Origin: Escherichia phage EP75
Length of the DNA: 64,000 nt
Sequence record: MG748547
Direction: 5' to 3' (one strand)
The notes beneath the pieces were generated by a model that had not been told where the DNA came from, did no database searches, and saw only the letters and a list, made by a program, of their open reading frames with translations. Both the position numbers and the translations under genes were made by a program. The stretch's first letter is position 1; every line of letters starts with the position of its first letter. Of the stretch, positions 25,874-58,660 are shown piece by piece.

Positions 25874-25880
25874 CTAAATA
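25874..25880 (+). promoter_or_regulatory. late-promoter-like motif CTAAATA
   Basis: one of 9 copies of (A)CTAAATA 20-45 nt upstream of structural gene starts; resembles T4 late TATAAATA. Confidence 0.4.
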
Positions 25881-25920
25881 TCTTCAACACCATATTCAAA
25901 CTCAGGTGATGGAGATTATC

Positions 25921-27702
25921 ATGGCCACGCAAACAGTTCCTTCACTCGACGTCAGAGCATTTGAATACATTATTAAACAGCGAATGAAAGCTGATCCCAC
26001 CTTTAAAGATTATGACTTTGAAGGTTCTGGTCTTAGTGCGATTATTCGTTTGTTGGCATCTGACGCGAACGCCATAGCCTTTATGCAAAACATGCTTAAT
26101 GGTGAAGGCCATTTGAAGACAGCAAATCAACGTTCAAACGTCGGTTTATCTGCTGCATTTCTTTCCTACACGCCTGACAACTATCGGGCAGCATACATGT
26201 ATGTCAACATCAAAGTTACGCCTTATGACGCCAGCACAGCCCCCAATGAGATCATCATGGATCGGCGCGTAATGTTCGTTGGGGCAAAAGACGGCAGTTC
26301 CTACAACTTTACTGTTGAGAAACCAGTGTCAGCAACGTTGACTGCAGACGGTTATTACATGTTCAACAATGTAAAGTTGGTACAGGGGAATTGGTTGTAC
26401 AAGACATATGATGTTGAAGGAAGCGCGATTTCAACATATACGATTCCTTCTGGGAATGTCGATATCAATCATATGGTCGTGCAAGTACAAGAATCAGAGT
26501 CTTCCGACGTTTCGACGACATATCAACGTTACAACAGTCCATTTGATCTGAGCCAATATGCTTACCTGTATTTCGTAGAATTGGGTATTGACGGTCTGTA
26601 TGTGTTTGAATTCGGTGATGGTTATCTGTCTCGCCGAGTAGAAGACGGAAACGTTATTTTCCTCCAGTATTTAGAAACTTCTGGTGCAGAAGGTAACGAC
26701 ATCACCAGCTTGTCTTCCGCGTCTTCGATAGGCGGGTTTAACCAGGTTGACGTGGAATTGGTTTCTGAACGCAGCGCGGGCGGCGGGGATCCAGAATCTA
26801 TTGAAGACATCAAACGTCTGGCTCCTTTAGCTTATCAGGCCGATGGCGCTGCCGTTACGGAAACGGATTATGGTGTGTTGACAGAAAGGCTGTTCTCTAA
26901 CGTTGCCCGTGCCAAATCTTATGGTGGTGACACGCTTTCTCCACCGGATTCCGGCTACGTTTATATTGCTGTGATACCATCTGTTGGTGAGACTCTTTCA
27001 GACGCGGAGAAGGCTGATATCGTTGCTTCTTTGGACAAATATAATGTGGGGTCTATCACTCCCAAAGTGGTGGACTCAGACATAACATATATCCAAGTTG
27101 CGACAACAATATTTTGGGATCCGACTTCGACAGTTTATGTTGAAGAACAGATGAAAGTCGTGGTTGGCAACAGTATTGTCAAATGGGGCGAAAACAATCT
27201 CGGCGGGTTTGATCAGTTGTTCGACAAAGAGATATTGCAGGAAGCAATTACGAAAATGGAACGTTCCATTAACTCAAATATCACGTCTGTCGGTTATAAA
27301 CGTCATTTCAAACCTGATTATGGTGTGTTGGATAGCTTTACTTTCAGTTATGGCAGAAGCATTAAACCTGGTTCTGTAAAAATAACAGGGTTTAAACCAC
27401 TTCCGGCCGAAGTTGATTTCACTTATTACATGCGTGATGAAAATGGAAATTTGAACATGTATAAGGTGAATAACAATGACACAACCAAAGAATTTTTGGT
27501 TCAGAAAACAGGCGTTGTGGATTACACCAACGGTGTCGTCGACCTTCAGCAGATTACGGTTTCAAATTATAATCCTGAAGGGATAACGATTGTCGTGCTA
27601 CCAGATGGACTGAATCAAAATATACAGGCTTCACAGAACCAAGTATTCAAAATTGGTGATGTGGTTGTTACGCCAGAGGTGCGCTATGTCCAAAGATCTT
27701 AA
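25921..27702 (+). CDS. baseplate wedge subunit (T4 gp6-like)
   Basis: N-terminal DYDFEGSGLS...RLLASD...KTANQRSNV matches remembered T4 gp6 N-terminal motifs; start trimmed to MATQTVP with GGAG RBS. Confidence 0.6.
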   Translation: MATQTVPSLDVRAFEYIIKQRMKADPTFKDYDFEGSGLSAIIRLLASDANAIAFMQNMLNGEGHLKTANQRSNVGLSAAFLSYTPDNYRAAYMYVNIKVTPYDASTAPNEIIMDRRVMFVGAKDGSSYNFTVEKPVSATLTADGYYMFNNVKLVQGNWLYKTYDVEGSAISTYTIPSGNVDINHMVVQVQESESSDVSTTYQRYNSPFDLSQYAYLYFVELGIDGLYVFEFGDGYLSRRVEDGNVIFLQYLETSGAEGNDITSLSSASSIGGFNQVDVELVSERSAGGGDPESIEDIKRLAPLAYQADGAAVTETDYGVLTERLFSNVARAKSYGGDTLSPPDSGYVYIAVIPSVGETLSDAEKADIVASLDKYNVGSITPKVVDSDITYIQVATTIFWDPTSTVYVEEQMKVVVGNSIVKWGENNLGGFDQLFDKEILQEAITKMERSINSNITSVGYKRHFKPDYGVLDSFTFSYGRSIKPGSVKITGFKPLPAEVDFTYYMRDENGNLNMYKVNNNDTTKEFLVQKTGVVDYTNGVVDLQQITVSNYNPEGITIVVLPDGLNQNIQASQNQVFKIGDVVVTPEVRYVQRS

Positions 27703-28540
27703 TAATGGACACAATGGGGTTAAGTATGAAACCCCATTGTTCTATCAGAACGATTTTCCTCTGTTCATAGAGTTCATGGACACGTTCTTTAATTGGCTGT
27801 ATCGGCAGCAGGGCTTCACTCAAGAAGAAATTTTGGCATATCTGGCAGACACTTCGAGTTGGATGAACCCTGAAAGTGAAGATTCTCCTGTTAAACAACT
27901 CATAGATTTGAAGGCCGACAAAACGCCAGGCTCTGAAGCCAAAGATTATCTGTCAGATAAATTTTTGGTCAGAACATTTGAGAACATGATGGCACTTGAT
28001 GCTGAGACGTTGTTGGATGCTGATGGAAGACCATTATTTTCTATTGAAGATAAGAATAAGCAGATAGACGACTGGTATAATGATTTTGGGTTTCAACGAA
28101 CTGTCGATAAATCATTTCAAGAATTTGGACATTTTATCCCAGTCGGTTCGGATTCGTTGTTGACGGCCACGGGCGATACGTTCTCTGTCTATATTGAAGG
28201 AACTAACCGAAGAACTCTGGATCATCCGCGTTGGCTTAAATTGTTGAAGCACATCTATAAAATACGTGGAACAAAGAAAGCGATTGAATTGTTCTTTTGG
28301 ATATATTTCGGTTGTCCAGTCAGCGTCTATTTTACGAAAGAAGACATAGGCGGTCTGGACGGAAATTTTGAATGTGACGGCACGACAGGGATGCGTGATG
28401 ATTACTATTATGATGAATACACTTATGTTATAGGAGTCCCAGGCGACGTATCTGATTTTGAAGGTGTGTTTGAACGCGTCTTCCGTCAGCATTTCCATCC
28501 TGCTGGATTTACTGTATTCCTAGAAAGCACAAGGAGCTAA
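27686..28540 (+). CDS. baseplate-associated structural protein
   Basis: 284-aa ORF coupled to gp6-like gene. Confidence 0.45.
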   Translation: MSKDLNNGHNGVKYETPLFYQNDFPLFIEFMDTFFNWLYRQQGFTQEEILAYLADTSSWMNPESEDSPVKQLIDLKADKTPGSEAKDYLSDKFLVRTFENMMALDAETLLDADGRPLFSIEDKNKQIDDWYNDFGFQRTVDKSFQEFGHFIPVGSDSLLTATGDTFSVYIEGTNRRTLDHPRWLKLLKHIYKIRGTKKAIELFFWIYFGCPVSVYFTKEDIGGLDGNFECDGTTGMRDDYYYDEYTYVIGVPGDVSDFEGVFERVFRQHFHPAGFTVFLESTRS

Positions 28541-28542
28541 AA

Positions 28543-29733
28543 ATGGCCGATTTCCTGAGTCAATATACAGGTCAGCAGATAGATCAGATATTAGGTTCTG
28601 TTGATGACAAAGTAAGTAAAAACGACGTCATTGATGATTTTGAAGTCAGTGACCCATTGTTTCCGCCTTCTGCTCGCCTGACTTATGAGTTGAAAAGGTC
28701 TGTGGATACGATTAATGACACCCTGACCAACAAAGTTATAAGAACGGATAGTGGTGAACAGACAATCAACGGTAAGAAGACATTTAATGCGCTGTTGGTG
28801 ACCAATGGGGGCATACAAGTCCCCGCTGGGAAATCTGTTTCAATCGCGGACGAACCAACCAACTCAACAGACGGTGTCAACCTGAGTATGTTGAGGAAAC
28901 ATGGTGTCAGTGAAGACACTACCCCGCCTGGTTCTGGTTTGGCTGGGGAGTTGTTGACATCCGGATATTACAAATTCAATTTGGATTTCACCAGATTGTC
29001 TGCGTATACCGGACCAACGTTGCCGACTTCAGTTCCTGTGCAGACAGATTCTGGAGCGCGTTATTGGACAATGACTGCATTTTTTGATGCGTTGTTTGCA
29101 GACAACCGATTTAATGGATATGTGACAACGACAGCGTATGACGCAGATATGCTGAGTCTAGAGTCTCAGATTAATAACATCAACACGTCGTTGAACGGGA
29201 AAGTCAACACCTCGACTTACAACACTAAGATGGCGTCGTTGGATTTGAGTATCTCCAATATCAACACGTCTCTGGGTAATAAAGTCGAGGTCAGCACGTA
29301 CAACACGAAGATGACATCTCTGGATAACAGCATCAGTTCTCTTTCCAGTGATAAAGTTAGTGTATCAACGTATAATGCCAAGATGACCTCTATCGACAAC
29401 AGTTTGGGGAACGCCGTTTATCGTACCAAAACGAATTTGTCGTCATACACGGTTTCGGCTTCGGGAACGACGGCTCTTCCAGATTTTGATTTGGTGAACC
29501 TTTGTCAAATACTGGTAACTGCGCAATGGGGGACAGGTAACGTTGTTGACACATATCGAGTAACCATAACTCGTGACGGAACGATCAAATCAGAGTTGTT
29601 GGTTCAGAAAAGTACGAGCGGTACAGTGACGTTCACAGGGGCTGTGGTGGGTGGTAAATTGAGAATTTCCGTTGTTAATGCAAATACAACAACCGCTTGT
29701 TCTGTCGATTATTCTATTACAGCTTCTTTCTAA
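28543..29733 (+). CDS. tail fiber-like structural protein with tandem ~20-aa repeats
   Basis: repeats ...STYNTKM(A/T)SLD(N)SIS... x3-4; coupled to baseplate genes. Confidence 0.5.
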   Translation: MADFLSQYTGQQIDQILGSVDDKVSKNDVIDDFEVSDPLFPPSARLTYELKRSVDTINDTLTNKVIRTDSGEQTINGKKTFNALLVTNGGIQVPAGKSVSIADEPTNSTDGVNLSMLRKHGVSEDTTPPGSGLAGELLTSGYYKFNLDFTRLSAYTGPTLPTSVPVQTDSGARYWTMTAFFDALFADNRFNGYVTTTAYDADMLSLESQINNINTSLNGKVNTSTYNTKMASLDLSISNINTSLGNKVEVSTYNTKMTSLDNSISSLSSDKVSVSTYNAKMTSIDNSLGNAVYRTKTNLSSYTVSASGTTALPDFDLVNLCQILVTAQWGTGNVVDTYRVTITRDGTIKSELLVQKSTSGTVTFTGAVVGGKLRISVVNANTTTACSVDYSITASF

Positions 29734-29735
29734 AA

Positions 29736-29742
29736 CTAAATA
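29736..29742 (+). promoter_or_regulatory. late-promoter-like motif CTAAATA followed by hairpin
   Basis: AACTAAATACCCCTAGATGACATGAATACATTTAGGGGTATT upstream of tail spike gene. Confidence 0.4.
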
Positions 29743-29779
29743 CCCCTAGATGACATGAATACATTTAGGGGTATTACAA

Positions 29780-32700
29780 ATGGCCAACAAACCAACACAG
29801 CCTCTTTTCCCTTTGGGTTTAGAAACTTCTGAGTCTTCGAACATAAAAGGCTTCAACAACTCCGGCACTATTGAGCATTCCCCTGGTGCCGTAATGACAT
29901 TCCCTGAAGATACTGAAGTTGCAGGTCTTCCATCTTCTGTGCGTTACAATCCCGATAGCGATGAATTTGAAGGTTATTACGAAAACGGTGGTTGGTTGTC
30001 TTTGGGGGGCGGCGGAATACGCTGGGAAACGCTCCCTCACGCTCCCTCTAGCAATTTGTTAGAAGGTCGCGGCTATCTCATTAATAACACCACAGGGGCA
30101 TCTACAGTGGTTCTCCCTTCCCCTACGCGTGTTGGGGATTCCGTTACTATTTGTGATGCCTATGGGAAATTCGCGACGTATCCATTGACCGTATCTCCAG
30201 CGGGAAATAACCTGTATGGTTCCACTGAAGACATGGCTATAACAACTGATAACGTATCAGCAACGTTCACTTGGTCTGGACCTGAACAAGGTTGGGTTAT
30301 CACATCCGGCGTCGGCCTTGGCCAAGGCCGTGTCTACAGTCGTGAAATCTTTACACAAATTTTGGCGTCTGAAACAAGTGCTGTCACTCTCAATACTCCA
30401 CCAACAATCGTGGACGTGTACGCTGACGGAAAACGTCTTGCGGAATCCAAATATTCACTAGATGGGAATGTGATCACTTTCAGTCCTTCTTTGCCAGCCA
30501 GCACAGAACTTCAGGTGATTGAATATACTCCTATTCAATTGGGTAATGGCGGTGGTTCTGGTTCTTCTACGATTACCTGGGTCTATAATGGGGGTTCAGC
30601 GGTTGGCGGTGAAACCGAAATCACGTTAGACATCGTTGTCGATGATGTTCCAGCCATTGATATAAACGGAAGTCGCCAGTATAAAAATCTGGGGTTCACA
30701 TTCGATTCATTAACCAGTAAAATCACTCTTGCGCAAGAACTGGATGCAGAGGATGAAGTTGTTGTAATTATCAATGGAACGCCAAACATCTATAATCAAA
30801 TTGATTATACTTTGCGGGAAGTGGCTCGTGTAACCAATGTTAAAGATACAGAGGTCATTTATTTTAGTGTTGGTGCTGTGTTAAGTGGGTATAAAGTTAT
30901 CTATGATAAAGTAACACAGAGATCATATTTTATTCCAGAGCTACCGACTGGAACCACGGCAGTCAGCCTTAGTTCTTCGGCTGTACTTGTGCATTCAGCT
31001 GGTAGTGTTGATCTGGGCGCATTAGCTGTATCTCGCGAAGAGTATGTTACCTTGTCTGGGACATTTGATTCTGGTGCTGTCATCAATACTAAAAATGAAT
31101 TACTCACCCATACGAACGGTAAGTATCGCTGGGATGGTTCACTTCCTAAAACTGTCGATGCTGGATCAACACCTGAAACATCTGGTGGAGTTGGTATTGG
31201 TGAATGGGTAAGTGTTGGTGATGCTTCTTTAAGATCTGATTTGAATTCGACAAATGGAGCTGGAATTGTAAAAACTGGAAATGGGAATACTGTACAAGAA
31301 ACATTTGATTTTATAAAAAATGTTCAACAAACAAATCTACATCCTTTTGTTCCTTCAGGCAATTTCGGTTCTGGACTTCCTTTTGATTCTTCGTTACAGG
31401 TATTCAAGTATAATGATGAATATTACTCATACAAAGGACCTATTGTCCCAGGTTCGACAGTTCCGGCAACCCCATCCGTTGACTCAAACTGGAAAAAAGA
31501 ACCTATTTCTGATTACATAGAAAATTACGGTGGTGGTGTGCATGTAGCTGATCAGACACCTGCAATTATGGCGGCTATATCTGCTGGTGTTCGCCGTATC
31601 ATATTTCCTAAAGGTGAACTTAGAATGTCTCAGTGTGATATCCCAGAGTACACACAAGGCCTCACGTTTGAAGGGCAAGGTGCCAATCAGGCGTACACTG
31701 GAACAACAGTGATCAAACCGTTAAATGATAATCAAAATTGTTTATTTAATTCTGGCGTAAACCAGCACGGACAGGATTCTATAAAATTTAAAAACATTCA
31801 ATTTGACGGAGAATGGCGTTGCAATCATGCAATATTGCATGAGTCTGGAGCTGGTTGGTACTATGAAAAACTGACAGGTAAAAATTTCAATACATGGGTT
31901 ATCTACGATGATCAGGGTTTGACTGTAATGCGTGACGTTTATACCGAAGCAACCAGTTCAGATCTGACGAAAAGAGCTACAGGTGGGTGTATCCGTATAT
32001 ACTCAGATTCTGTAATGGACACCGTAAACTGTTATGGTGGAAGTGTTCCGCTATTGCTCGCTGCTGGTGGAAACCGAATTACGAATATCTGGGCAAATGG
32101 TGGGTATGATGTTGGCGCAATAATGTTGATGCCAAAAAATGACAGTACTAACCATATCAATACCGCTATGAGCAATATCTATATCGGAGAAAGCACAAAT
32201 ACATCTGCAACTGCAATTCCAGTTCTTCACATACAAGGTAACTCAATTCGTCGCGTATCTGGTGTTCAGATTTCAAATGCACATTTTGTGCATGCTGACT
32301 TGACTCTCAATACAAACATGGTGATGATACGAACCGATAAAGTTGATGGTTTTGTGATGTCATCTTTTGATGTTCTTGGACGAGGCGAGTACAGTTCTGC
32401 AAGCAGTCGCACATATAATTTCTTAAATGCGACAGATTCTACCGGAATGGCTTTTTCTGCCGGAAGTGTAAGAGGTATTAATAATAACCCAATAGTTTTA
32501 TCATCAGGGTCTAGGTTAGCTATTGATGCCGTTGAATTCGATGGGTGGAGTACGAACTCTGATTCAGGTATAGAGAATAAAGCTGCTATACGTTCATCTG
32601 GTGCTGGAACAAGGTGCTGCATTGGTAGCTCATGTACTTTCAATGCTTCGCAAGCGGATGCTTACGCTGTGTATGCAGGGGATGAATTTGCAGTTGATAT

Positions 32701-32821: not shown

Positions 32822-32860
32822 TAACAAGAACCCATGATTCATAAATTTTATTAGTTCAGA

Positions 32861-32867
32861 CTAAATA
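32861..32867 (+). promoter_or_regulatory. late-promoter-like motif CTAAATA + conserved hairpin
   Basis: AGTTCAGACTAAATACCCCATATTGG...TATGGGGTAT; near-identical ~60-bp block at 35072..35134. Confidence 0.4.
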
Positions 32868-32900
32868 CCCCATATTGGTCATCCTTTATGGGGTATTATC

Positions 32901-35027: not shown

Positions 35028-35040
35028 TAAGTAACTTATG

Positions 35041-35066
35041 CCCCGCTTTGGCGGGGTTCTTATTAT
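35041..35066 (+). terminator. rho-independent terminator CCCCGC-TTTG-GCGGGG + T-rich
   Basis: read directly. Confidence 0.55.
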
Positions 35067-35096
35067 ACCTTTGTTCATAAATTTTATTAGTTCAGA

Positions 35097-35103
35097 CTAA
35101 ATA
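35097..35103 (+). promoter_or_regulatory. late-promoter-like motif CTAAATA + conserved hairpin
   Basis: duplicate of 32846..32898 block. Confidence 0.4.
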
Positions 35104-35124
35104 CCCCATATTGGCAAATCCTTT

Positions 35125-37905
35125 ATGGGGTATTTTCAAATGACTAGAAATGTAGAAGAATTATTCGGCGGCGTAATCACAGCTCCCCACCAGATTCCTT
35201 TCACGTATAAATCAAATGTCGGTGGAGAAACTTTCCTTTCCTTGCCGTTCTATCCTGTCACTGGCGTAGTCACAATCAACGGTGGTATGCAAGTTCCGTT
35301 AGACAACTTTGAAATCGAAGGAAATACGTTGAATCTCGGGCGCGCATTGTCCAAAGGCGATGTTGTGTATTGCTTATTCGATAAAATTCTTTCGCCAGAA
35401 GATACAGCCAAAGGTATCCGCATATACAAATTTCAAGCCGTAGGAGGTGAAACCGAGTTCACTCCTGATTTCACATCTTATGGAGTCCAATCTCTTTATA
35501 TCGGTGGCGAGTACAAAACACCCGAAATTGAATATTCCTATAACAGCATGACAGGGAAAGTATCTTTGCAAACTGCACTGACTGCAGGCGTTTGGGTAGT
35601 CGCTGAAATGTCTGTTAGACAACCGAATATCAGTCCGGCATTTGATCGAAGTATTCAAGAAATCGCCCGTTCTGCTAATGTAAAAGACTCTGAAGTCATC
35701 GTTAGTACGGACACCATATCTTTGTTGGATGGGAAGAAAGTTGTTTATGATATAGCGACGCAAACCAGTTATGGTTTACCAACCATACCTGATGGTTCTG
35801 TCATTTCTTCTGTATCTGCTGGGAAATTGAATTACAACCCAGGTGATGTGCAGGTTGATTTGTTGCCTTTAGAAGATTCATTTATTAATGTGATAAACAC
35901 TCTGGGGCGCAATGATGGTGCCAAGTATATTGGAGAATGCCATTCTGTTGCTGATCTCAGGAATACTGAACCCACTATGGATGGACAACGCATTATTCTT
36001 AAGCAACACACTGCGGGTACTCTTCTTGGTGGAGGGGTATTCCGTGCGTTAATTGATGGTACAGGAAAGACTGATAATAACGGTACTGTGATCAAAACTG
36101 TTGGCGGCGCAGCATGGTTACGTGTTAATGCTGATAGAGTTAACCCATTCATGTTTGGTGCTTTGGGTGGTTCTAATGATGATACTATTCCAGTACAATC
36201 TTGTGTGGATAGTGGTAAGGCCACACAATTAACTGATGCACATTACGTTAGCAATATCCAGTTAAAATATAATACGTCGTCTATTTATGGGTCTGGATTA
36301 CATTACTCAAGGTTGCATCAGTTGCCTTCTGCTACTGGGAATTGTATTACCATAAAAGATACATGCTCCCTTATTGTATTAGACGCCTTTGGGGTATATG
36401 GCACAGGTGCACAACAAGGCACGTCATTTACTGCGGGCACAACAGGTATCTATGTAGAAACTCCTTCAGGTCTCTCAGCCGATTATCCGTTCCACACTAC
36501 CGCAGACCCAAGACGCGACTTGTGTATTTCTAAAGTCCATATAGCAGGTTTTGATGAATATGGGTTAAATATTGATAGTGGTAACTTTAGTGTTACTACA
36601 GATTCTCTTTTAGTCAACCACATCAATCAGGTGGGTGTCCGTTGTGCTACTACTGATTGGACTTGGACAAATATCCAGGTTAATACCTGCGGTAAACAAT
36701 GTCTGGTTCTTGATGGTTGTGGTAATGGTCGTATTATTGGCGGTAAATTCATTTGGGCTAACTGGCAACCTTATGGTACAGTAGGACAGTTCCCAGGCAT
36801 TACTATTAATAACAGCCAGAATATGGTTATTAATGGTATTGAGGTACAAGATTGTGGTGGGAATGGCATTGAGATTAGCGATTCATATTCAATTTCCATG
36901 AACGGATTGAACACCAATCGTAACGGCATCAATGCTAACAACACTTTCTACAACATCGTATTTAACAAAAGTGATGCAGTTATCAACGGATTCGTAGGAC
37001 TCAATTATGCCGCGAATAGTGGTTCAGGTGCTAACTCTAGTGCAGGCAATTTTCAGTTCCTGTCTAATGATTGTAGTGTCACCATTAATGGTGTGGTTGA
37101 GACTGGTTATATGGGCATTAACTTTATTGGTGATAACAATATTATCAACCCCACCAATTCCGACCTGAGCATTAACGGATTGGTTAATTATTCCAAGACT
37201 GGTTTGCAAACCATGAACGAGACCCCTACATTTGATGGTGTTAGCACTACACCTGTTTATGTAAGTGTCCCATCTTCTGTAGGGCAAGTAAATGGTCTGA
37301 GACTATCACAAGCCAACAAAGATAAATTACTGTACTCAAGAACAGCAGGTCCAGAAGGTATTACCATGGCTGCTGTTATAGTACCTACTATATCTGGAGC
37401 TGAAGTATTTAACTTCATGGCCATTGGTTCAGGGTTTAGTGATACATCCAACAGTCTTCATCTTCAATTAGTTATAGACGCTTCTGGAAAACAAACAATT
37501 GCTTTGCTATTGGGGGGCGATGGTACAACCCAAATTTTATCTGGGGATTTACCTAACGACCTTAAACTACAAAGTGGTGTGCCATATCATATAGCTATTG
37601 GTGCTAAACCTGGATATTTCTGGTGGAGTATTCTTAATATTCAGACGGGTAAGAGAATCAGACGGTCATTCCGAGGCGCTTATTTAGCCGTACCATTTAA
37701 TTCTATATTCGGATTAACTTCCTCATTAACATTCTTCTCGGATAGCAATGCTGGTGGGGATGCTTGTTCTGGGGTGGGCGCTAAAGTGTATGTTGGTATG
37801 TTCTCTTCTGAGAACGATTATGTAGCTTCACGATACTACAACCTGATTAATCCTGTAGACCCTACTAAGTTAATTAGTTACCGTATATTGGATTCTTCTA
37901 TTTAA
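35125..37905 (+). CDS. tail spike protein with distinct N-terminal baseplate-attachment-like domain
   Basis: weaker copy of the shared module (SEVIVSTDTISLLDGKKVVYDIATQTSYGLP); glycine/serine-rich beta-rich remainder. Confidence 0.6.
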   Translation: MGYFQMTRNVEELFGGVITAPHQIPFTYKSNVGGETFLSLPFYPVTGVVTINGGMQVPLDNFEIEGNTLNLGRALSKGDVVYCLFDKILSPEDTAKGIRIYKFQAVGGETEFTPDFTSYGVQSLYIGGEYKTPEIEYSYNSMTGKVSLQTALTAGVWVVAEMSVRQPNISPAFDRSIQEIARSANVKDSEVIVSTDTISLLDGKKVVYDIATQTSYGLPTIPDGSVISSVSAGKLNYNPGDVQVDLLPLEDSFINVINTLGRNDGAKYIGECHSVADLRNTEPTMDGQRIILKQHTAGTLLGGGVFRALIDGTGKTDNNGTVIKTVGGAAWLRVNADRVNPFMFGALGGSNDDTIPVQSCVDSGKATQLTDAHYVSNIQLKYNTSSIYGSGLHYSRLHQLPSATGNCITIKDTCSLIVLDAFGVYGTGAQQGTSFTAGTTGIYVETPSGLSADYPFHTTADPRRDLCISKVHIAGFDEYGLNIDSGNFSVTTDSLLVNHINQVGVRCATTDWTWTNIQVNTCGKQCLVLDGCGNGRIIGGKFIWANWQPYGTVGQFPGITINNSQNMVINGIEVQDCGGNGIEISDSYSISMNGLNTNRNGINANNTFYNIVFNKSDAVINGFVGLNYAANSGSGANSSAGNFQFLSNDCSVTINGVVETGYMGINFIGDNNIINPTNSDLSINGLVNYSKTGLQTMNETPTFDGVSTTPVYVSVPSSVGQVNGLRLSQANKDKLLYSRTAGPEGITMAAVIVPTISGAEVFNFMAIGSGFSDTSNSLHLQLVIDASGKQTIALLLGGDGTTQILSGDLPNDLKLQSGVPYHIAIGAKPGYFWWSILNIQTGKRIRRSFRGAYLAVPFNSIFGLTSSLTFFSDSNAGGDACSGVGAKVYVGMFSSENDYVASRYYNLINPVDPTKLISYRILDSSI

Positions 37906-37957
37906 AAAATATACCCCTCTTCGGAGGGGTCTTTACTAGAAAAACAATGAGGTACTT

Positions 37958-40235: not shown

Positions 40236-40265
40236 AAAAACCCCGCTTCGGCGGGGTTTTTATTT
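40236..40265 (+). terminator. rho-independent terminator CCCCGC-TTCG-GCGGGG-TTTTTATTT
   Basis: read directly; identical core at 53781..53805. Confidence 0.65.
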
Positions 40266-40288: not shown

Positions 40289-40295
40289 CTAAATA
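40289..40295 (+). promoter_or_regulatory. late-promoter-like motif CTAAATA
   Basis: GTATACTAAATATCTC ~35 nt upstream of the 1612-aa gene. Confidence 0.4.
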
Positions 40296-46565: not shown

Positions 46566-46773
46566 ACTTGATGTCGCGTCCGGAAGGATCTGAATTTGCT
46601 AGAATATAACCATCAACCACGTTCTTTTCGTCCCACCATTCAATAAAATCATTACCCTTTTCGCCTTTGATAAGACCCACAATGTTATATGAACCATCGG
46701 CGATTTTAGCATCTACACAGATAATTCTCACACGCCTTCCGTCACGAGTTTCTTTAATATCTTCAACCTTCAT
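46561..46773 (-). CDS. hypothetical small protein
   Basis: 70-aa ORF adjacent to endonuclease cassette. Confidence 0.4.
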   Translation of the reverse strand: MKVEDIKETRDGRRVRIICVDAKIADGSYNIVGLIKGEKGNDFIEWWDEKNVVDGYILANSDPSGRDIKL

Positions 46774-46800
46774 TTATCAATTCCTCAAAAGAATTAATGA

Positions 46801-46857
46801 TTGACTAAATACCTTCAAAATTGAGGGTAAAGTCATGGCTACTTCAAAATATTTCTG
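46801..46857 (+). repeat. 57-bp degenerate direct repeat of the gp14 promoter/5' end (copy 1, truncated after 7 codons)
   Basis: ACTAAATAccTTcAAAaTTGAGGgtAAAgTcATGGCTACTTC vs 47577..47633. Confidence 0.6.
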
Positions 46858-47549
46858 ATAAAATCTACGACTGATCCATCGTATACAAACCATTCGGTAG
46901 CACCGTCAAAATCCTTATACCCCGCGCTCTTACACATTCTATGGGCAATTCTTTCCAACCTGGAAACAAATAATCCGTCGGTTGAATTAAATATTTCTAG
47001 AACGTTGAAGTAAAACGGGGTGGTGCTTCTCAAACAATTTATACGTTTCTTAGGCGAGTTGGTTATTCCCACTTTCATACAACCTTCGTCGTTGACTAGA
47101 ATATATAAGAAACCTTCCTTAGAATAATTGTAACCCGATTCTGCGCAATACGGACACCAACTTCGGCTGTTGACTAAATTACCGTACCTGGATTCCCACC
47201 TGTGCGTTTCAGAACATTCCATGACACAAATTGTCACGTTGTCTTTGTACTTCCCGCCAATGAAATTTATGAATTTACCACCGTTGCTTACGGCGTACTC
47301 CGATATCCTGATTTTAGCTTCTTCATTTGAGATCTTCTTGTTTCCACGACACGAAGGACACCAACTTCCTTTATTTATCAAATTCGCATAAGTTGCTGAG
47401 TTCCATTCATGACCAAATTCGCAAGACAAAATGCACTTAGTTTGGTTGGTGACAAATTTACCACCGACAAATCCGTGAAATATTCCACCTCTAGAAGAAG
47501 CATATGATTTGATTCTTTTAGAAGCAATTCCTTCTGTCAGGACGATCAT
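46839..47549 (-). mobile_element. free-standing endonuclease-like gene: two zinc-ribbon repeats (CxxC...WCPxC) + C-terminal T5orf172/GIY-YIG-like domain
   Basis: 236-aa ORF opposite to flanking late genes; repeated GGKF...GHEW...NL(I/V)N.GSWCP(S/Y)C; C-terminal GFLYILVN...KVGIT...R; flanked by direct repeats. Confidence 0.5.
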
Positions 47550-47576
47550 ATTGATTCACCTTAAAAACAAATTCAA

Positions 47577-47583
47577 CTAAATA
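47577..47583 (+). promoter_or_regulatory. late-promoter-like motif CTAAATA
   Basis: 24 nt upstream of gp14-like ATG; part of repeat copy 2. Confidence 0.4.
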
Positions 47584-47607
47584 TATTTAAATCTTGAGGA
47601 AAATATT

Positions 47608-48249: not shown

Positions 48250-48251
48250 TC

Positions 48252-51824: not shown

Positions 51825-51826
51825 TC

Positions 51827-51833
51827 ACTAAAT
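51827..51833 (+). promoter_or_regulatory. late-promoter-like motif CTAAATA
   Basis: upstream of tail sheath gene. Confidence 0.4.
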
Positions 51834-51876
51834 ATCTTTCAAATTGAGCGAAACTCTACCGAGAAGGAATGATATT

Positions 51877-53772
51877 ATGGCAACTCAAAGCTTCAGCGTT
51901 GCGCCGTCCGTTCAGTGGACTGAGCGTGATGCCACGCTTCAGACGTCCCCGTCCGTTGTTGTTCAGGGCGCGACCGTCGGCAAATTTCAATGGGGTGAAG
52001 TTGAACTTCCAGTGCTGGTGACTGGTGGTGAGACAGGTTTGGTGAAGAAATTCTTCAAACCCAACGACAGTACTGCGACCGATTTTCTCGTAATCGCGGA
52101 CTTTTTGTCTTACAGCTCTATGGCATGGGTGACCCGTGTTGTTGGTCCTCTGGCCAAGAACTCTGTTACCAAAGGTCAGACAGCGATTGCGATCAAAAAC
52201 AAACTGGATTTTGAAACAGCAAGTCCTTCGGCGTCCATCACTTGGACTGGTCGTTATCCAGGTTCCCTGGGTAATGATATTGCTATCAATGTTTGTGATG
52301 CTGCTGGATTCTCAACTTGGGAATTCCGTAATAACTTTGCATACGCACCTCAGTCTGGTGAATTCCATGTAGTTGTCGTAGACAAAGTTGGTCGCATTAC
52401 CGACTCTGCTGGCGCGGTCGGTCAGGTTGACCGTATCTCCGTTTCTGGTACGGCTACTGCTGCTGGCACCATCAGTGTGGCAGGTGAAGATATCGCATAT
52501 CTGGATACTGATACTCCAGCCACTTTGGCAACCAAAATCGGTACAGCGCTAACTTCCCTGACAAGTGTTTATTCTTCTGTTGTCGTGAAGTCCAACACTG
52601 TCATCGTGACCCATAAAGCTATCGGTCCTCAGGCCGTTACAGCTATCGTTCCTGATGATAAAGGACTGACTGCAACAGCCGTAATCACTACTGTTGGCGC
52701 TTCTGGTTCCATCATTGAAAAATACGAACTGATGCAGAACACCCAGGGTTCTAAAAAATCCGATGGCGCGAATGCGTACTTCAAAGACGTGATCAACGAT
52801 ACTTCAAATTGGGTGTATACCTTCGCGGGCGAACTGGTTGCAGGTGTCGTTGAATTAGAAGGCGGCGTAGACGATTATAACATCAACCGCGTGGCAGCTA
52901 TCCAAGTCTTGAACAATGCTGAAGCATATGATGCGAAGCCAGTATTTGCGTACTGTGAAGAACTGATTGAGCAACAAGCATTGATCGACTTATCTACTGA
53001 GCGAAAAGATACCGTATCTTTCGTATCCCCGCTCCGTGATACGGTTGTTGGCAACCGTGGTCGTGAAATGGATGATGTCGTTGCTTGGCGTGAAAGCCTT
53101 GTTCGCGACTCTTCTTATTTCTTCATGGATGATAACTGGGCATACGTGTACGACAAGTACAACGACAAAATGCGTTGGATTCCGGCTTGTGGTGGCACCG
53201 CAGGTGTTTGGGCGCGAAGCATTGAAATCGCGGGTATCTACAAATCTCCTGCGTTCCACAACCGTGGCAAATACAACAACTACAATCGAATGGCGTGGTC
53301 TGCGTCTTCCGATGAACGTGCCGTGTTGTACCGCAACCAGATTAACAGCATTGTGACCTTCTCCAATGAAGGTATCGTGTTGTATGGTGACAAAACTGGC
53401 CTGACTCGTCCGTCTGCTTTCGATCGTATCAATGTTCGCGGTCTGTTTATTATGGCAGAACAGAACATCGCTGCAATCGCCAAATATTACCTTGGTGAGA
53501 ACAATGATGCGTTCACTCGCAGTCTGTTCAGCAACGCTGTTCGTCCTTATATTCGCCAGCTGGCAAATATGGGTGCGATTTACGATGGTAAAGTCAAGTG
53601 TGATGAAGATAACAACACTGCTGATGTTATCGCAGCAAATCAGCTTGTAGCGGGCATTTGGTTGAAGCCTGAGTACAGCATTAACTGGATTTATTTGGAT
53701 TTTGCTGCAGTTAGACCAGACATGGAGTTCTCGGAAATCGAATCGGGCGGTGGCATCGTTGCTGCATCCTAA
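51877..53772 (+). CDS. tail sheath protein (gp18-like)
   Basis: GKFQWGE near N-terminus and C-terminal YGDKTG...PSAFDRINVRGLF match T4 gp18 motifs; start trimmed to MATQSF. Confidence 0.85.
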   Translation: MATQSFSVAPSVQWTERDATLQTSPSVVVQGATVGKFQWGEVELPVLVTGGETGLVKKFFKPNDSTATDFLVIADFLSYSSMAWVTRVVGPLAKNSVTKGQTAIAIKNKLDFETASPSASITWTGRYPGSLGNDIAINVCDAAGFSTWEFRNNFAYAPQSGEFHVVVVDKVGRITDSAGAVGQVDRISVSGTATAAGTISVAGEDIAYLDTDTPATLATKIGTALTSLTSVYSSVVVKSNTVIVTHKAIGPQAVTAIVPDDKGLTATAVITTVGASGSIIEKYELMQNTQGSKKSDGANAYFKDVINDTSNWVYTFAGELVAGVVELEGGVDDYNINRVAAIQVLNNAEAYDAKPVFAYCEELIEQQALIDLSTERKDTVSFVSPLRDTVVGNRGREMDDVVAWRESLVRDSSYFFMDDNWAYVYDKYNDKMRWIPACGGTAGVWARSIEIAGIYKSPAFHNRGKYNNYNRMAWSASSDERAVLYRNQINSIVTFSNEGIVLYGDKTGLTRPSAFDRINVRGLFIMAEQNIAAIAKYYLGENNDAFTRSLFSNAVRPYIRQLANMGAIYDGKVKCDEDNNTADVIAANQLVAGIWLKPEYSINWIYLDFAAVRPDMEFSEIESGGGIVAAS

Positions 53773-53780
53773 GACAACAA

Positions 53781-53805
53781 CCCCGCTTCGGCGGGGTTTT
53801 TATTT
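53781..53805 (+). terminator. rho-independent terminator CCCCGC-TTCG-GCGGGG-TTTTTATTT
   Basis: identical to 40241..40265. Confidence 0.65.
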
Positions 53806-54588
53806 CCTGCTGATATGCCATCCTGTAGTGTTTGTTCTCTTCAGTGAAGATTTCCTGTAAGGTTTAGGGATGGGATTCTGCATCCTTCCAGCTAATGCCA
53901 TGTTGAAAGATTCTATACACAAACATTGTTCTTGACAAAATTTGTTTAGATTCTTGATTTCATATTTTTCACCATCTGGTGAAAGAAGTGTAAACCATCT
54001 TCCGAGAGATCGTTTTATTTTCTCTTGGTATTCAGGATTCATGCGCACTTTGTTCATAGCGGCACGGAGATTTTCTTTACATTTTGGATTTTCGTACGCT
54101 TTCTTCAAACATTGTGAATGTATATGGCGTTTGTTTTTGTCCCAAGCCTTGGTTTGAGATTCAGACATTTTCGTTTTTGTTTCTTCGGAAAGTTTAATGC
54201 CTGTCATTGAATGAACAAACAAAACATTCCAACCAGCATCTTTAACTGGTTTCATCCCGATGAATTCTCTGGTTTCTATATCATATGCTGCTGCCATACC
54301 CGATATGTCTATTTGACCACCATGACTGATGTTCAGTCCACCTTCAGAGATATGAGTCTTATGTAATTTTATGAGTTCAATTTCTTTAGAATTTAGTTCA
54401 TCGACTTGGCATTCCAGCAATATCTCTTGGTCAGTAATTCCATATTTTCGGATATAATTGTAGAGGATAGTTTTATTTCCTCTTCTGGCCTCACCCAGAT
54501 GCTCCTTTATTCGGTGTTCAACCCCATTTCTTGTTTGTCCAATATACTTCTTTCCACCAACGATTAACATGTAAATGTGACCGATCAT
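53800..54588 (-). mobile_element. GIY-YIG homing endonuclease (Seg/I-TevI-like) with NUMOD-like C-terminal repeats
   Basis: MIGHIYMLIVGGKKYIGQTRNGVEHRIKEH; start trimmed to MIGH with GGAGGTG RBS; opposite strand to flanking sheath/tube genes. Confidence 0.7.
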
Positions 54589-54655
54589 ACAACACCTCCA
54601 AGAACATGATACCCCGAAATTGTTCAACACTAAATAAAATAGAGGTGAATTTGAA

Positions 54656-55114
54656 ATGATATACGCATACAAAATTGAAACGATAACTAATGGAAAGGTC
54701 TACATCGGTGTGACCAATCACCCACAACGAAGATATGATCAGCATTTTGCGAATGCTTTTCATCATGGAGTCCAAAGTGAATTGTATGATGCCATGCGTA
54801 AGTATGGAACATCTGGATTTACTTTCGTTGTAATTGCTCAGACCGATGAAGTCCATAAATGGGAATTAGAGAAGCAACTCATCGCTCAATATAATTCTTA
54901 TGAGATGGGTTACAACATGAATAAAGGCGGTAATGATGGAAGTCATATGCTGGGTAAAACTGCAGCAAAATTGACATCTACAGGTGAACACATTGGTCTT
55001 GTTTCTCTCATAGATCCCCGTTGGGAATTGTGTGAAATCGAACCCGTTTTAAGCAATGTTGACCACGGATTTGATTTTTCTTCCATGAAGATTAAAAGAT
55101 TGACGACTAATTAG
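54656..55114 (+). mobile_element. GIY-YIG homing endonuclease-like protein
   Basis: MIYAYKIETITNGKVYIGVTNHPQRRYDQH. Confidence 0.6.
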
Positions 55115-55144
55115 AATTGTGTACTCTTATTTGGAGATATAAAA

Positions 55145-55678
55145 ATGGCGACAGTCAATGAGTTTCGCGCAGCCATGTCACGAGGGGGCGGCGTACAACG
55201 CCAACACCGCTGGCGTGTGACTGTAAACTTTCCTTCTTTTGTTGCTGGTTCCGACACAATTCGCGACGTGTCCTTGCTAGCTGTAACTACCAACACCCCG
55301 ACAGGTCAGCTGGGTGAAATTCTGGTGCCCTGGGGTGGTCGTGAACTTCCATTCCCAGGCGACCGTCGTTTCGAAGCACTGCCTGTAACATTCATTAACG
55401 TTGTGAACAACGCGCCGTACAACGCATTTGAAGTGTGGCAGCAATTCATCAATGGTAGTGAAAACAACCGCGCCAGCGCGAATCCAGATGATTATTTCCG
55501 TGATATCATCATGGATCTTCTGGATGCGAATGACAATGTCACCAAGACATGGACTTTGCAGGGCGGCTGGCCTCAAAACCTCGGCCAATTGGAACTCGAT
55601 ATGTCTGCTATGGACTCTTATACACAGTTCACCGTCGATCTGCGTTATTTCCAAGCCGTGTCAGACAAATCTTTATAA
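55145..55678 (+). CDS. tail tube protein (gp19-like)
   Basis: C-terminal QGGWPQNLGQLELDMSAMDSYTQFTVDLRY resembles T4 gp19 KGLWPTNVGELQLDWDS...FEVTLALDY. Confidence 0.8.
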   Translation: MATVNEFRAAMSRGGGVQRQHRWRVTVNFPSFVAGSDTIRDVSLLAVTTNTPTGQLGEILVPWGGRELPFPGDRRFEALPVTFINVVNNAPYNAFEVWQQFINGSENNRASANPDDYFRDIIMDLLDANDNVTKTWTLQGGWPQNLGQLELDMSAMDSYTQFTVDLRYFQAVSDKSL

Positions 55679-55745
55679 TGTCCTCAGTGCTGGGGGAATC
55701 ATATTCCCCCTCACTAATTACAAGAAAATGTTGAGGACTTAGATC

Positions 55746-57428
55746 ATGGCTGGATACGGCAGAGGGTTCTTCGGTTTGTTTGGCGGCGGCGGTTTGGTGA
55801 ACGCTAAAGTCGACACCGATAAGTTAGCCCAAAAACAAGATGAACGGTTGCTAACCAAAGCGACAGTTGTTGCTCTGGACGACGCTCAAGACGGTTCTAT
55901 AATCCTTCAGGGTGGTGCGAACACCTACAACTATGTTGGCGTTGAAAGTGAACTTCTCAGCGTTAAAACTGTTGTAGAAGAATATCAGTCCATGGCCCAG
56001 CAGCCTGAAATTCGCAAAGCGGTGGACATTATTGTCAACGATGTTGTCACATGTGAGGAAGATGAAACTCCAGTGACAGTAAATCTTGACAAAGTTGAAG
56101 GGATATCTGATACTGTTAAAGAATCTATCACCGAATGCTTCAAAGAAGTTATGCACTTGATGGACTTTGACAATACGGCATACCAGAAGATCCGGAAATG
56201 GTATGTTGACGGTAGACAAGCATATCATGTCATCGTTGACCCCACGAATAAAAAAGGCGGGATCAAGAAATTGGTCATGTTGGATTCCCGTTGTATTCGC
56301 CCTGTGTACATCGTAGAAAAGGTGATGCGAGAAGGTGGTATCGAAGCCATCGAATCTGTAACGCTGAAATATTATTACAACCCGAATTACAACCGGAACC
56401 AATTCACTGGTCAGTCAGGGACTTCTCAAAACTTCCAGCCTTCACAACAAGAACTCGTATTCGATGACGAAAGTATTGTTTACATCGATAGTGGTGAAGA
56501 GCCATTGGCCAACGGTATTGTTCCAGGGCTTTTAAACCCTGCTATCCGTCCGTTGAATAACCTGGTCACAACTGAAGATGCGACTGTAATTTATGCCATC
56601 ACTCGCGCCCCCGAAAAACGCGCATTCTATCTTGACGTCGGTACTCTTGGTAAGAAATCTGCTGAAGAATACATGACCATGATGATGGGCAAATTCAAAA
56701 ACCGTAACGCATATGACCGCACCACTGGTAAAATCACAGGCAACGCCCATCTTATGGGTATTGCAGAAGATTATTGGTTGCCGCGCCGCGAAGGTCAGAA
56801 TGCTACAGAGATCGCGACTGTTGGTGGTGGGAATCAATTGGGCGAAATGGATCACGTGAACTATTTCCGTGAAAAACTCTATGATGCTCTAATGATCCCT
56901 AAGAGCCGCCTCCAAGAGGAAGGATCTATTAACATTGGGGGTTCTAACCTTGCGGAGATTACACAGGAAGAGCTGCGTTTCAGCAAGTTCTGTGCTGGGT
57001 TGCGTCGCCGTTACTCCCATTTCTTTATGGAGTTTTTACGTCGTCAATTAATTTTGAAAGGCGTAACGGATGAAAAGGATTGGAATGAGAAGATCAAACC
57101 ATTTATCAAGTTTGAATTCACTTCCGACAGTTATATCCGTGAGCAACAAGAAAACGCAATCCTAAATGATCGCCTGGCTTCTCTGAACACTGTTGAGCCT
57201 TTTGTTGGTTCTATATTCTCCATCGATTATGTCATGCGGAATGTTCTGCGTATGTCAGACGAAGAAGTTAAAGAACAACAGGCTAAGATCGCGGAAGAGA
57301 AGAAGAAAGGTCTCTATCCGAAGGTTCAAGCAGATGAAACTGGCAATTATAGTGGTTCAGATGTTAGTCCGTTGAAGTTTAAACCTGAGACTATCCCATT
57401 CTCCGGTTCAACAGACGATAGTATTTAA
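55746..57428 (+). CDS. portal vertex protein (gp20-like)
   Basis: 560 aa, position between tube and prohead genes. Confidence 0.75.
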   Translation: MAGYGRGFFGLFGGGGLVNAKVDTDKLAQKQDERLLTKATVVALDDAQDGSIILQGGANTYNYVGVESELLSVKTVVEEYQSMAQQPEIRKAVDIIVNDVVTCEEDETPVTVNLDKVEGISDTVKESITECFKEVMHLMDFDNTAYQKIRKWYVDGRQAYHVIVDPTNKKGGIKKLVMLDSRCIRPVYIVEKVMREGGIEAIESVTLKYYYNPNYNRNQFTGQSGTSQNFQPSQQELVFDDESIVYIDSGEEPLANGIVPGLLNPAIRPLNNLVTTEDATVIYAITRAPEKRAFYLDVGTLGKKSAEEYMTMMMGKFKNRNAYDRTTGKITGNAHLMGIAEDYWLPRREGQNATEIATVGGGNQLGEMDHVNYFREKLYDALMIPKSRLQEEGSINIGGSNLAEITQEELRFSKFCAGLRRRYSHFFMEFLRRQLILKGVTDEKDWNEKIKPFIKFEFTSDSYIREQQENAILNDRLASLNTVEPFVGSIFSIDYVMRNVLRMSDEEVKEQQAKIAEEKKKGLYPKVQADETGNYSGSDVSPLKFKPETIPFSGSTDDSI

Positions 57429-57434
57429 AGTTCA

Positions 57435-57441
57435 ACTAAAT
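57435..57441 (+). promoter_or_regulatory. late-promoter-like motif CTAAATA
   Basis: upstream of small prohead gene. Confidence 0.4.
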
Positions 57442-57469
57442 ATAGAAAATTAATTCGGAGATCAAAATC

Positions 57470-57640
57470 ATGAGCGCAATTGATATCGTTCGTGCAGTAA
57501 TTGATGGCGACACAGATACTGCTGTTGCAGAATGCAACATGGAACTTGATGCACGTAGTCAAGAACTATTGAACCAAGGTACAGCATATGTTTTGGATTC
57601 TATCGCGGCTGATATGAATTCAAATAACGACGGTCAGTAA
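57470..57640 (+). CDS. small acidic prohead core protein candidate (56 aa), below ORF-track cutoff
   Basis: ORF MSAIDIVRAVIDGDTDTAVAECNMELD... with GGAG RBS in the gp67/68-equivalent position. Confidence 0.3.
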   Translation: MSAIDIVRAVIDGDTDTAVAECNMELDARSQELLNQGTAYVLDSIAADMNSNNDGQ

Positions 57641-57648
57641 GGAGACGC

Positions 57649-57966
57649 ATGATGGAAATCACAGAGATCGCCACGTTCGCTGATTTCCTGGCCTCTCGTA
57701 TGGACGAGCAGCGAGTCATCGATAAAGTGAACGCTCGTGGTAAACGCCGCCGCCGACTGAAATGTGCCCCTGGGTTCAAATTGTCGGCTGATGGTTCACG
57801 TTGTGAAGTTATGGACGCCAGCGAACGTCGTGTTCGCAAGATCGGCAACCGCAAAGCCCTCCGCTCTAAAAAGCGTATGGGAATGGGCTATCAACGTAAA
57901 ATCGAGCGCCGCAAGAAAAAGGCTATGAAGTTCCGCAAAATGATGGGACTGAGTAAGAACAAGTAA
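57649..57966 (+). CDS. basic prohead core / internal protein candidate
   Basis: 105 aa, K/R-rich, AAGGAG RBS, between portal and protease. Confidence 0.4.
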   Translation: MMEITEIATFADFLASRMDEQRVIDKVNARGKRRRRLKCAPGFKLSADGSRCEVMDASERRVRKIGNRKALRSKKRMGMGYQRKIERRKKKAMKFRKMMGLSKNK

Positions 57967-57973
57967 GGAGTTT

Positions 57974-58642
57974 ATGATGAAACTGTTGCGTGAGATCACA
58001 GCGATAGGGAAGGATCTTCAAATCGGTGAGGCCACAACCTCAACTGGTGGGAAGGCCATGTTCATCGAAGGTCCGTTTGTGATGTGTAACCAAGTCAACC
58101 GTAACGGGCGTAACTATGATCTGCAGAAAGTGGGTATTCCTGCTGTCGAAGCATACGACAAAGAGTATATCCAAGATCGTCGCGCAATCGGTGAAGTCAC
58201 ACATCCTGACTATCCTTTCCCTAATTTAGTGGAAGCTGCACTCAAAACCGAATCCCTTCGTTGGGAAGGCACTAATGCCATCGGACGGGCGCGAATTTTA
58301 AACACACCGAAAGGCCAAATCATTCGTGCACTGGCCGAAGCAGACTTCAATCTGGCCGTGTCTACTCGTGGCCTGGGTGAGACTAAGTCGGTAAACGGTT
58401 ATGATGACGTTCAGCCTGGCTTTATGCTTACCGCCGTTGATGCAGTTGACCGTCCTTCTGGACAAGTTTGTTATGTTAAGGCTGTGAGTGAATCTGTTGA
58501 ATGGCAGCTGGACGAGGCTTCTGGTATTTGGATGCCTCGTGATGTTAAAGGGAAAGTTGTAGACCAGTTGGTGAAAGCCAATATCCAGGTTGAAGACGAT
58601 TTCCTGCGCCGCCTTGATGCAGCATTGAATCATCTGGGCTGA
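57974..58642 (+). CDS. prohead core protease (gp21-like)
   Basis: NRNGRNYDL and VSTRGLGETKS resemble T4 gp21 SRNGRIYP / MSSRGSGS. Confidence 0.7.
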   Translation: MMKLLREITAIGKDLQIGEATTSTGGKAMFIEGPFVMCNQVNRNGRNYDLQKVGIPAVEAYDKEYIQDRRAIGEVTHPDYPFPNLVEAALKTESLRWEGTNAIGRARILNTPKGQIIRALAEADFNLAVSTRGLGETKSVNGYDDVQPGFMLTAVDAVDRPSGQVCYVKAVSESVEWQLDEASGIWMPRDVKGKVVDQLVKANIQVEDDFLRRLDAALNHLG

Positions 58643-58653
58643 AATTCAGCTCA

Positions 58654-58660
58654 CTAAATA
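58654..58660 (+). promoter_or_regulatory. late-promoter-like motif CTAAATA
   Basis: upstream of scaffold gene. Confidence 0.4.

Follow-up and report, generated by a model that had tools for sequence, protein, structure and literature searches.

The window analysed here is the whole 64,000-nucleotide (nt) stretch of Escherichia phage EP75 DNA (MG748547), and the element in question is the heptamer CTAAATA, which recurs ahead of its structural genes and was considered as a late promoter motif. Judged by its sequence, the window is a segment of a Kuttervirus genome (Ackermannviridae, ViI-like phages), with 94–99% nucleotide identity to Kuttervirus genomes (Maynard, ST-W77, Se-J): 94.6% to phages Se-H/I/J over positions 1–25000, 96.7% to ST-W77 over 25001–50000 (covering 90% of that length) and 98.8% to Salmonella phage Maynard over 55000–62000. 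Gene functions were assigned by annotation transfer, including from ST-W77. The early/replication block occupies the minus strand from 1 to 25558 and carries rIIA, DNA polymerase, many small open reading frames (ORFs) and a tRNA cluster (Tyr, Asn, Met; minus strand, 21775–22590). The structural block lies on the plus strand from 25921 and comprises gp6, two more genes, four tail spike genes, a VriC-like gene of 1612 amino acids (aa), gp13, gp14, gp15, the terminase genes gp16/gp17, gp18, gp19, gp20, the prohead genes gp68-like/gp21/gp22 and the major capsid gene gp23.

Sense-strand copies of CTAAATA precede the virion genes gp6, three tail spikes, VriC-like, gp14, gp18 and gp22; each is given here with its ATG and with a transcription start that would lie ~6 nt past the last A of the motif. 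The first copy stands before the gp6 baseplate wedge gene (25874–25880, ATG 25921, predicted start ~25886), and the next three, all of the form CTAAATAcccc, before the first (29736–29742, ATG 29780, ~29748), second (32861–32867, ATG 32901, ~32873) and third (35097–35103, ATG 35140, ~35109) tail spike genes. They are followed by the copy before the VriC-like gene (40289–40295, ATG 40329, ~40301; weak hairpin only) and by two copies at gp14: a remnant promoter of Kuttervirus type (46805–46811), with only seven codons (MATSKYF) and a stop behind it, and a Limestonevirus-type copy without a hairpin before the functional gp14 neck gene (47577–47583, ATG 47608, ~47589). Further copies lie ahead of the gp18 tail sheath gene (51828–51834, ATG 51877, ~51840), a GIY-YIG homing endonuclease gene (54630–54636, ATG 54656, ~54642), a 56-aa ORF (57470–57640) that heads the gp68-like/gp21 prohead genes (57436–57442, ATG 57470, ~57448) and the gp22 scaffold gene (58654–58660, ATG 58689, ~58666). 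On the minus strand, CTAAATA precedes a gene of unknown function at 17406–17864 (phrog_3852; motif 17897–17903, ~17891) and, as CTAAATAcccc, another at 17900–18349 (phrog_4700, unknown function; motif 18376–18382, ~18370). At 22508–22514, a third minus-strand copy directly adjoins the CCA terminus of tRNA-Met and shares bases with a TTCAAT box; it is a doubtful late promoter.

In T4 numbering, which was used for the 14-site alignment, the C of the motif is -12 and its last A is -6. Three plus-strand sites deviate at -8 and are treated as weaker or variant members: CTAATTA (T at -8) before the gp19 tail tube gene (55107–55113, predicted start ~55119) and the gp20 portal gene (55714–55720, ~55726), and CTAAGTA (G at -8) before the gp23 major capsid gene (59570–59576, ~59582), whose ATG at 59617 lies 40 nt downstream. 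The original prediction, which spoke of nine copies and listed ten, was right in placing CTAAATA on the plus strand at all ten and CTAAGTA before the capsid gene. Most of its positions are exact, those at 51827, 57435 and 59569 (the variant) being the A that precedes the heptamer, and its list of promoter copies lacked 54630 on the plus strand and 17897, 18376 and 22508 on the minus strand.

CTAAATA occurs 19 times on the two strands of the window, against 6.9 ± 2.7 expected from 100 dinucleotide-preserving shuffles of the window, none of which reached 19. Well-placed copies, on the coding strand and mostly before virion genes, make up 14 of the 19, and the distance from motif to ATG is 19–42 nt counted from the motif end (26–49 nt from its start), close to the 20–45 nt first proposed. 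The remaining five, all on the minus strand (9798, 26668, 37681, 38441 and 39834), lie inside genes or antisense, are about as many as chance would give, and do not share the flanking preferences of the other sites. Placement is the stronger signal: under a strict rule (the ATG of an ORF of at least 60 aa, 12–50 nt downstream and near the 5' end of the ORF), 11 of the 19 copies pass, compared with 4.4% of all window positions (binomial P = 7e-11). When the 21 one-mismatch variants were pooled, 12 of 139 copies passed (Fisher P = 2e-6 against CTAAATA), and the only variants with the same placement were CTAAGTA (gp23), CTAATTA (gp19, gp20) and, less so, ATAAATA. In the complete ST-W77 genome, ~16 of 22 copies stand at a promoter position, including before gp48 and a helicase gene.

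Alignment of the 14 sites gave an extended consensus, a-CTAAATA-yCyy-a-a-A, in which -13 is A in 11 sites, positions -5 to -2 are pyrimidines in 10–12 of the 14 (G is almost absent and C is commonest at -4 and -2) and -1 to +2 are A-rich. The full 11-mer CTAAATACCCC is present at four of them (29736, 32861, 35097 and 18376 minus), the others having only the 7-mer core. There is no -35 element, as no position from -47 to -14 carries more than 0.5 bit in these sites. The T4 late promoter is likewise an 8-bp element (-13 to -6) without a -35 box (PMC2988020, PMC1524935), and its consensus TATAAATA, served by gp55, gp33 and the gp45 clamp, shares with the Kuttervirus sites an A/T-rich -10-like element, a location before virion genes and a lineage with homologues of all three factors. 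Over the 7-mer core the motif does differ from the T4 consensus by a single base, as claimed, with C in place of A at -12, and the preferred base at -13 is the A that is also a common variant in T4 (PMC2988020); positions -5 to -2 are A/T-rich in T4 (PMC2988020) and pyrimidine-rich here. The T4 consensus itself was tried as this phage's promoter and rejected, since it has one copy in the window, which is chance level. A closer counterpart is the late promoter of Aeromonas phage Aeh1, CTAAATA starting at -12 (Nolan et al. 2006, PMC1524935; repeated by Geiduschek & Kassavetis 2010, PMC2988020), which was recognised in silico before T4 late-gene orthologues and has the same seven bases, C at -12 included, preceded by a/g at -13.

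A terminator scan placed intrinsic terminators with long T-runs on the plus strand at 35040, 40236, 46535, 53779, 59539 and 60969. The one at 35040–35057 lies upstream of the 35097 motif, that at 40236–40261 just before the 40289 motif and that at 59539–59556 immediately before CTAAGTA at 59570; the motifs at 35097, 40289, 46805 and 59570 are all placed directly behind a terminator and therefore fit the points at which transcription would be expected to restart.

Loci around the gp18 and gp6 homologues of relatives were taken from IMG/VR. All 24 relatives examined, which span 99% to 40% protein identity, have CTAAATA before gp18 while the flanks diverge, and it is also found ahead of gp14, gp19, gp20, gp22 and gp23 orthologues, the gp22 site being kept down to 25% protein identity. 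Two members of more distant genera, L018 and L019 (gp18 73% and 66% identical), have CTAAATA where the window has CTAATTA before gp19 and gp20 and CTAAGTA before gp23, as do L011 at gp19 and L025 at gp23. The variants in the window can therefore be regarded as orthologous promoters substituted at -8, and they are kept across Kuttervirus, LIMEstone1 and two other relatives. The C(-12) late promoter variant accordingly reaches well beyond Ackermannviridae, to uncultured relatives of only 25–40% protein identity. Two contigs with gp18 42–47% identical (L024 and L026) keep CTAAATA before gp18 and otherwise differ: L026 has aCTATATA before gp14, gp20, gp22 and gp23, and L024 has it only before gp23, its gp22 orthologue keeping CTAAATA, which suggests a further drift of the late promoter consensus.

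The factors that a promoter of this type would need are encoded in the lineage. ST-W77 has a late sigma factor (phrog_234, E = 1.6e-53), a gp33-like co-activator (PF16805, E = 4.6e-19) and a sliding clamp (phrog_223, E = 1.5e-65) together with its loader, and gp55, gp33 and gp45 homologues have been reported in the published analyses of CBA120, ViI and AG3. Taken with the placement and conservation of the sites, this makes it very probable, from sequence, that CTAAATA is the -10-like element (-12 to -6) of Kuttervirus late promoters of the T4 type, with C at -12. By analogy with T4, the host RNA polymerase core carrying the gp55-like late sigma would melt the DNA at CTAAATA, and the gp33-like co-activator and gp45-like sliding clamp would assist initiation; it is on these grounds that we infer promoter activity, late timing and start sites.

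Several observations weigh against this assignment. In ST-W77 the total of 22 copies is not in excess of the 32 ± 5.6 found in mononucleotide block shuffles, so that the signal is positional and not a global excess; since global excess is then the wrong statistic, position and variant controls were used instead. The gp55, gp33 and gp45 genes lie outside the window and were checked in the relative ST-W77 only, and a literature search found no experimental mapping of Ackermannviridae late transcripts (5' ends, timing or in vitro transcription). The pyrimidine- and C-rich stretch from -5 to -2 departs from the A/T-rich sequence of a T4-type late promoter. Three of the motif-led genes (17406–17864, 17900–18349 and the 56-aa ORF 57470–57640) have no known function, and their late status is assumed. 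Finally, the non-consensus CTAAGTA belongs to the major capsid gene, which is expressed more highly than any other late gene and encodes the most abundant virion protein.

Three other readings of the motif were weighed. CTAAATA could be some other conserved signal in the 5'-untranslated region or the DNA, for instance one that governs RNA processing or stability or is bound by a phage regulator. Its fixed position 19–42 nt before the ATG would suit an RNA-level element equally well, and a translational-repressor or endoribonuclease gene is annotated in Ackermannviridae. We nevertheless consider this improbable, because the heptamer agrees with the T4 late -10-like element at six of seven positions and exactly with the Aeh1 element upstream of T4 late-gene orthologues, because several sites stand right behind terminators (40236/40289, 59539/59570, 46535/46805), where a new start is needed, and because the lineage has a dedicated late sigma factor.

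Still less probable is that the sites are host sigma-70 promoters in which TAAATA serves as an imperfect -10 element and the phage sigma factor takes no part. TAAATA does resemble TATAAT at four of six positions and the A/T-rich context is compatible, but neither a -35 element nor a TG extension is conserved, sigma-70-like matches are at shuffle level (43 vs 33.4 and 47 vs 45.7), and a sigma-70 -10 element would make no use of the C that is invariant at -12. There is, moreover, a separate sigma-70-like class, TTCAAT-N14-TATAAT, that is limited to early genes. In the early block it appears as TTCAATAA-N-TATAAT at 25620, 20528, 12219, 7602 and 4478 on the minus strand and near 16150 and 63030 on the plus strand; it corresponds to the second published Ackermannviridae motif, TTCAAT(AA)-N14-TATAAT, lies 40–70 nt before early-region genes, was not found in the structural module of the window and is probably the early, host sigma-70 promoter class. 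The notion that an A/T-rich 7-mer simply accumulates by chance in A/T-rich intergenic DNA, for which the five clearly non-functional copies among 19 and the genome-wide count in ST-W77 might be cited, is effectively refuted by the position test, by one-mismatch variants of the same composition without such placement and by orthologous sites kept down to 25–40% protein identity.

Within the late promoter interpretation, the C at -12 raises a question about the sigma factor. T4 gp55 flips the non-template A(-12), A(-9) and A(-8) into pockets, A(-12) lying against Y97 and -8 being also the position at which the gp19, gp20 and gp23 variants have T or G, and the roles of residues N13, F86, T99 and Y97 have been described (PMC7892883). 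In our gp55 alignment T4 N13, F86 and T99 are kept in Kuttervirus and T4 Y97 is aligned with W; the Kuttervirus protein had no PDB match by phmmer and no Pfam family. A protein correlate of C(-12) was sought in this pocket and discarded: Aeh1 (Straboviridae, a T4 relative), with the same motif, keeps the T4-like pocket NPHAYI(S/T), and only Kuttervirus differs (NFFSWVT), its gp55 homologue also being longer (263 aa vs 173–185 aa). A pocket sequence in common thus cannot be why Aeh1 and Kuttervirus both have C(-12), and no simple pocket substitution accounts for a C at the position where T4 gp55 flips an A.

As a sequence, the motif is not new. Adriaenssens et al. (2012, Arch Virol 157:2035) reportedly gave the first description of CTAAATAcCcc and its companion motif, for 'Viunalikevirus'. 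CTAAATAcCcc has been published as an Ackermannviridae regulatory motif (PMC7283392), and the present sites belong to the same family and have the same sequence, four of them matching all 11 bases, with the companion TTCAAT[N14]TATAAT also present. Earlier, the CBA120 paper (2011) had stated that the ViI-family late promoter sequence was not yet identified, and the promoter search in the AG3 paper used the T4 consensus. CTAAATA is thus an already known, ordinary late motif of Ackermannviridae and the finding mainly confirms annotation: the suggestion that it may define the late promoter of this lineage fits the T4-type traits that sequence can test, and the novelty it implied does not stand, given the earlier reports for Aeh1 and Ackermannviridae. 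It also allows the likely late transcription units to be mapped, with their promoters and terminators, at the gp6, tail spike, neck, sheath, tube, portal, prohead and capsid genes. The window also differs from the published motif in that 10 of its 14 sites lack cCcc. Here this extension looks like the Shine-Dalgarno (SD)-pairing arm of a hairpin that only some genes have, not like a constituent of the promoter in general.

Strong predicted hairpins (-9.2 to -19.6 kcal/mol) are found at six of the 14 sites (25874, 29736, 32861, 35097, 46805 and 18376 minus). In all six the 5' arm consists of the last bases of the motif and/or the next 7–11 nt, and the 3' arm holds the SD sequence (GGGGT or GGAG). 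At gp6 (25880–25916, plus strand, -11.6 kcal/mol), TCTTCAaCACC just past the motif pairs with GGTGaTGGAGA, which includes the SD. The hairpin of the first tail spike gene (29739–29775, plus strand, 14 bp, -19.1 kcal/mol) pairs AATACCCCTAGATG with CATTTAGGGGTATT, its 3' arm being the SD GGGGT, and that of the second (32864–32897, plus strand, -19.6 kcal/mol) sequesters the SD by pairing AATACCCCATA with TATGGGGTATT; the third tail spike gene has a hairpin of the latter type (35099–35135, plus strand, -18.8 kcal/mol). The SD is also sequestered at the remnant gp14 promoter (46810–46829, plus strand, -9.2 kcal/mol; TACCTTCA with TGAGGGTA) and at the phrog_4700 gene (18352–18378, minus strand, 11 bp, -17.2 kcal/mol; ATACCCCATAC with GTGTGGGGTAT).

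The stems differ in sequence and yet all pair (CCCCATA/TATGGGG, CCCCTAG/CTAGGGG, CCCCCAT/ATGGGGG, CCTTCA/TGAGGG and TCTTCA.CACC/GGTG.TGGAGA). In orthologous hairpins the stems are kept and the loops vary, with changes from U.G to C-G or U-A; the gp6 orthologue in L040, for example, has TCTCC/GGAGA, with a U.G to C-G change. When the 12 nt after the motif were exchanged among sites, the summed energy of the native combination (-116.9, compared with -67.7 ± 10.8) was not reached in any of 20000 permutations (P < 5e-5). This swap test stands in for a count of covariations, as loop lengths differ and anchoring an alignment on the 3' arm would presuppose the structure. The probability that the SD is unpaired in read-through RNA is 0.25, compared with 0.41 in control genes (P = 0.007), with values of 0.01–0.22 at the six hairpin sites, and it rises to 0.50 in RNA that begins at the predicted start. 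The geometry of a promoter within the 5' arm fits if transcription starts 6 nt past the motif, as in T4; the starts used here are predicted. At four of the six sites, the hairpin explains the 'cCcc' extension.

A comparable arrangement is known from T4 e, soc, 49 and I-TevI and from Aeh1 mobE, where a late promoter is embedded in a translation-inhibiting hairpin (PMC3014915). The layout is shared, with the promoter in or beside the 5' arm, the SD in the 3' arm and late RNA predicted to lack the 5' arm; the EP75 hairpins differ in that they are predicted only and belong to baseplate and tail spike genes within the late cluster, and not to early-transcribed genes. On the strength of the folding results we put forward, tentatively and with somewhat less than even confidence, that the hairpin occludes the SD at these six sites (gp6, three tail spikes, phrog_4700 and the remnant gp14). 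Transcripts reading through from upstream would then have a closed ribosome site, or would be partially terminated, and RNA initiated at the embedded promoter, having no 5' arm, would be translated, so that the six genes would depend on their own late promoter, as do T4 e, soc, 49 and I-TevI.

Four points count against such a role. The hairpin was considered as a general property of the promoter and rejected, being absent at eight of the window's 14 sites. Nor is it seen at the head or tail promoters in L018 and L019 (swap test P = 0.70). Pairing with the SD explains 'cCcc' only in part: orthologues of the 17897 type have no complementary 3' arm and yet show CCCCATA behind the motif, and for that reason the C-run may in part be a promoter or initiation feature. 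Lastly, in the tail spike region all upstream genes are late too, and a block to read-through there would bring no obvious benefit. As regards read-through itself, nothing resembling a terminator separates 29736 or 32861 from the genes upstream, and canonical terminators precede 35097 and 46805.

The same six hairpins could instead be intrinsic terminators of the upstream gene, behind which the embedded promoter restarts transcription, with no SD sequestration involved; the net effect, dependence of the gene on its own promoter, would be the same. Their stems are G+C-rich, and counting each stem only as far as GGGG gives tails with a moderate U content (UAUUUUC at 35097; in relatives, UAUUUUA and UAUUUGA). 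In minimum-energy folds, however, the motif's AUA is base-paired with the UAU behind GGGG, and the tails that are left (for example ACAAAUG, AUCAUG and CUAUGAAA) are poor in U. The terminator scan did not pick out any of the six, though it found canonical terminators with long T-runs in the same module, and one of these (35040–35057) already lies ahead of the 35097 hairpin. Termination as the function of these hairpins is accordingly held to be unlikely.

If the hairpins close the ribosome binding site to RNA coming from upstream, or end its transcription, a subset of Ackermannviridae late genes (the host-range-determining tail spikes, gp6 and a few others) might be organised as insulated cassettes, each expressed only from its own promoter, a generalisation that we regard as rather doubtful. 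Were it to hold, the control known from T4 gene e would be extended to a new class of genes and tied to host-range modularity, and the promoter-hairpin joints (32838–32900 and 35074–35139) could serve as recombination points for tail spike swaps. The regions upstream of the 32861 and 35097 motifs are in fact almost duplicates: an intergenic cassette of ~60 nt (TTCATAAATTTTATTAGTTCAGA-CTAAATA-hairpin) stands in near-identical form at both joints, ahead of two different tail spike genes, and may be a joint for the exchange of tail spike modules. Tail spike genes are the usual targets of host-range engineering, and an insert that disrupts the predicted hairpins might alter their expression.

A similar element was seen in ST-W77 (NC_049378, ~147000–147040, minus strand; L051), where CTAAATACCC is followed by a 13-bp SD-sequestering hairpin. 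It leads an unannotated ORF of 111 codons beside a RuvC-like resolvase gene and recalls how a hairpin and a late promoter control T4 gene 49 (endonuclease VII).

At gp14, an endonuclease ORF (46839–47549, minus strand, phrog_681 / HNH) is inserted behind codon 7. To its left lie the Kuttervirus-type promoter, the seven codons and the stop, identical to ST-W77, and to its right gp14 has a whole promoter and 5' end that match those of the Limestonevirus LIMEstone1 exactly. The insertion resembles a homing-endonuclease cassette of which one flank was co-converted from a donor similar to Limestonevirus. Between gp18 and gp19 there are two further homing-endonuclease genes, one on the minus strand (53800–54588, phrog_314) and the motif-led GIY-YIG gene on the plus strand (54656–55114).

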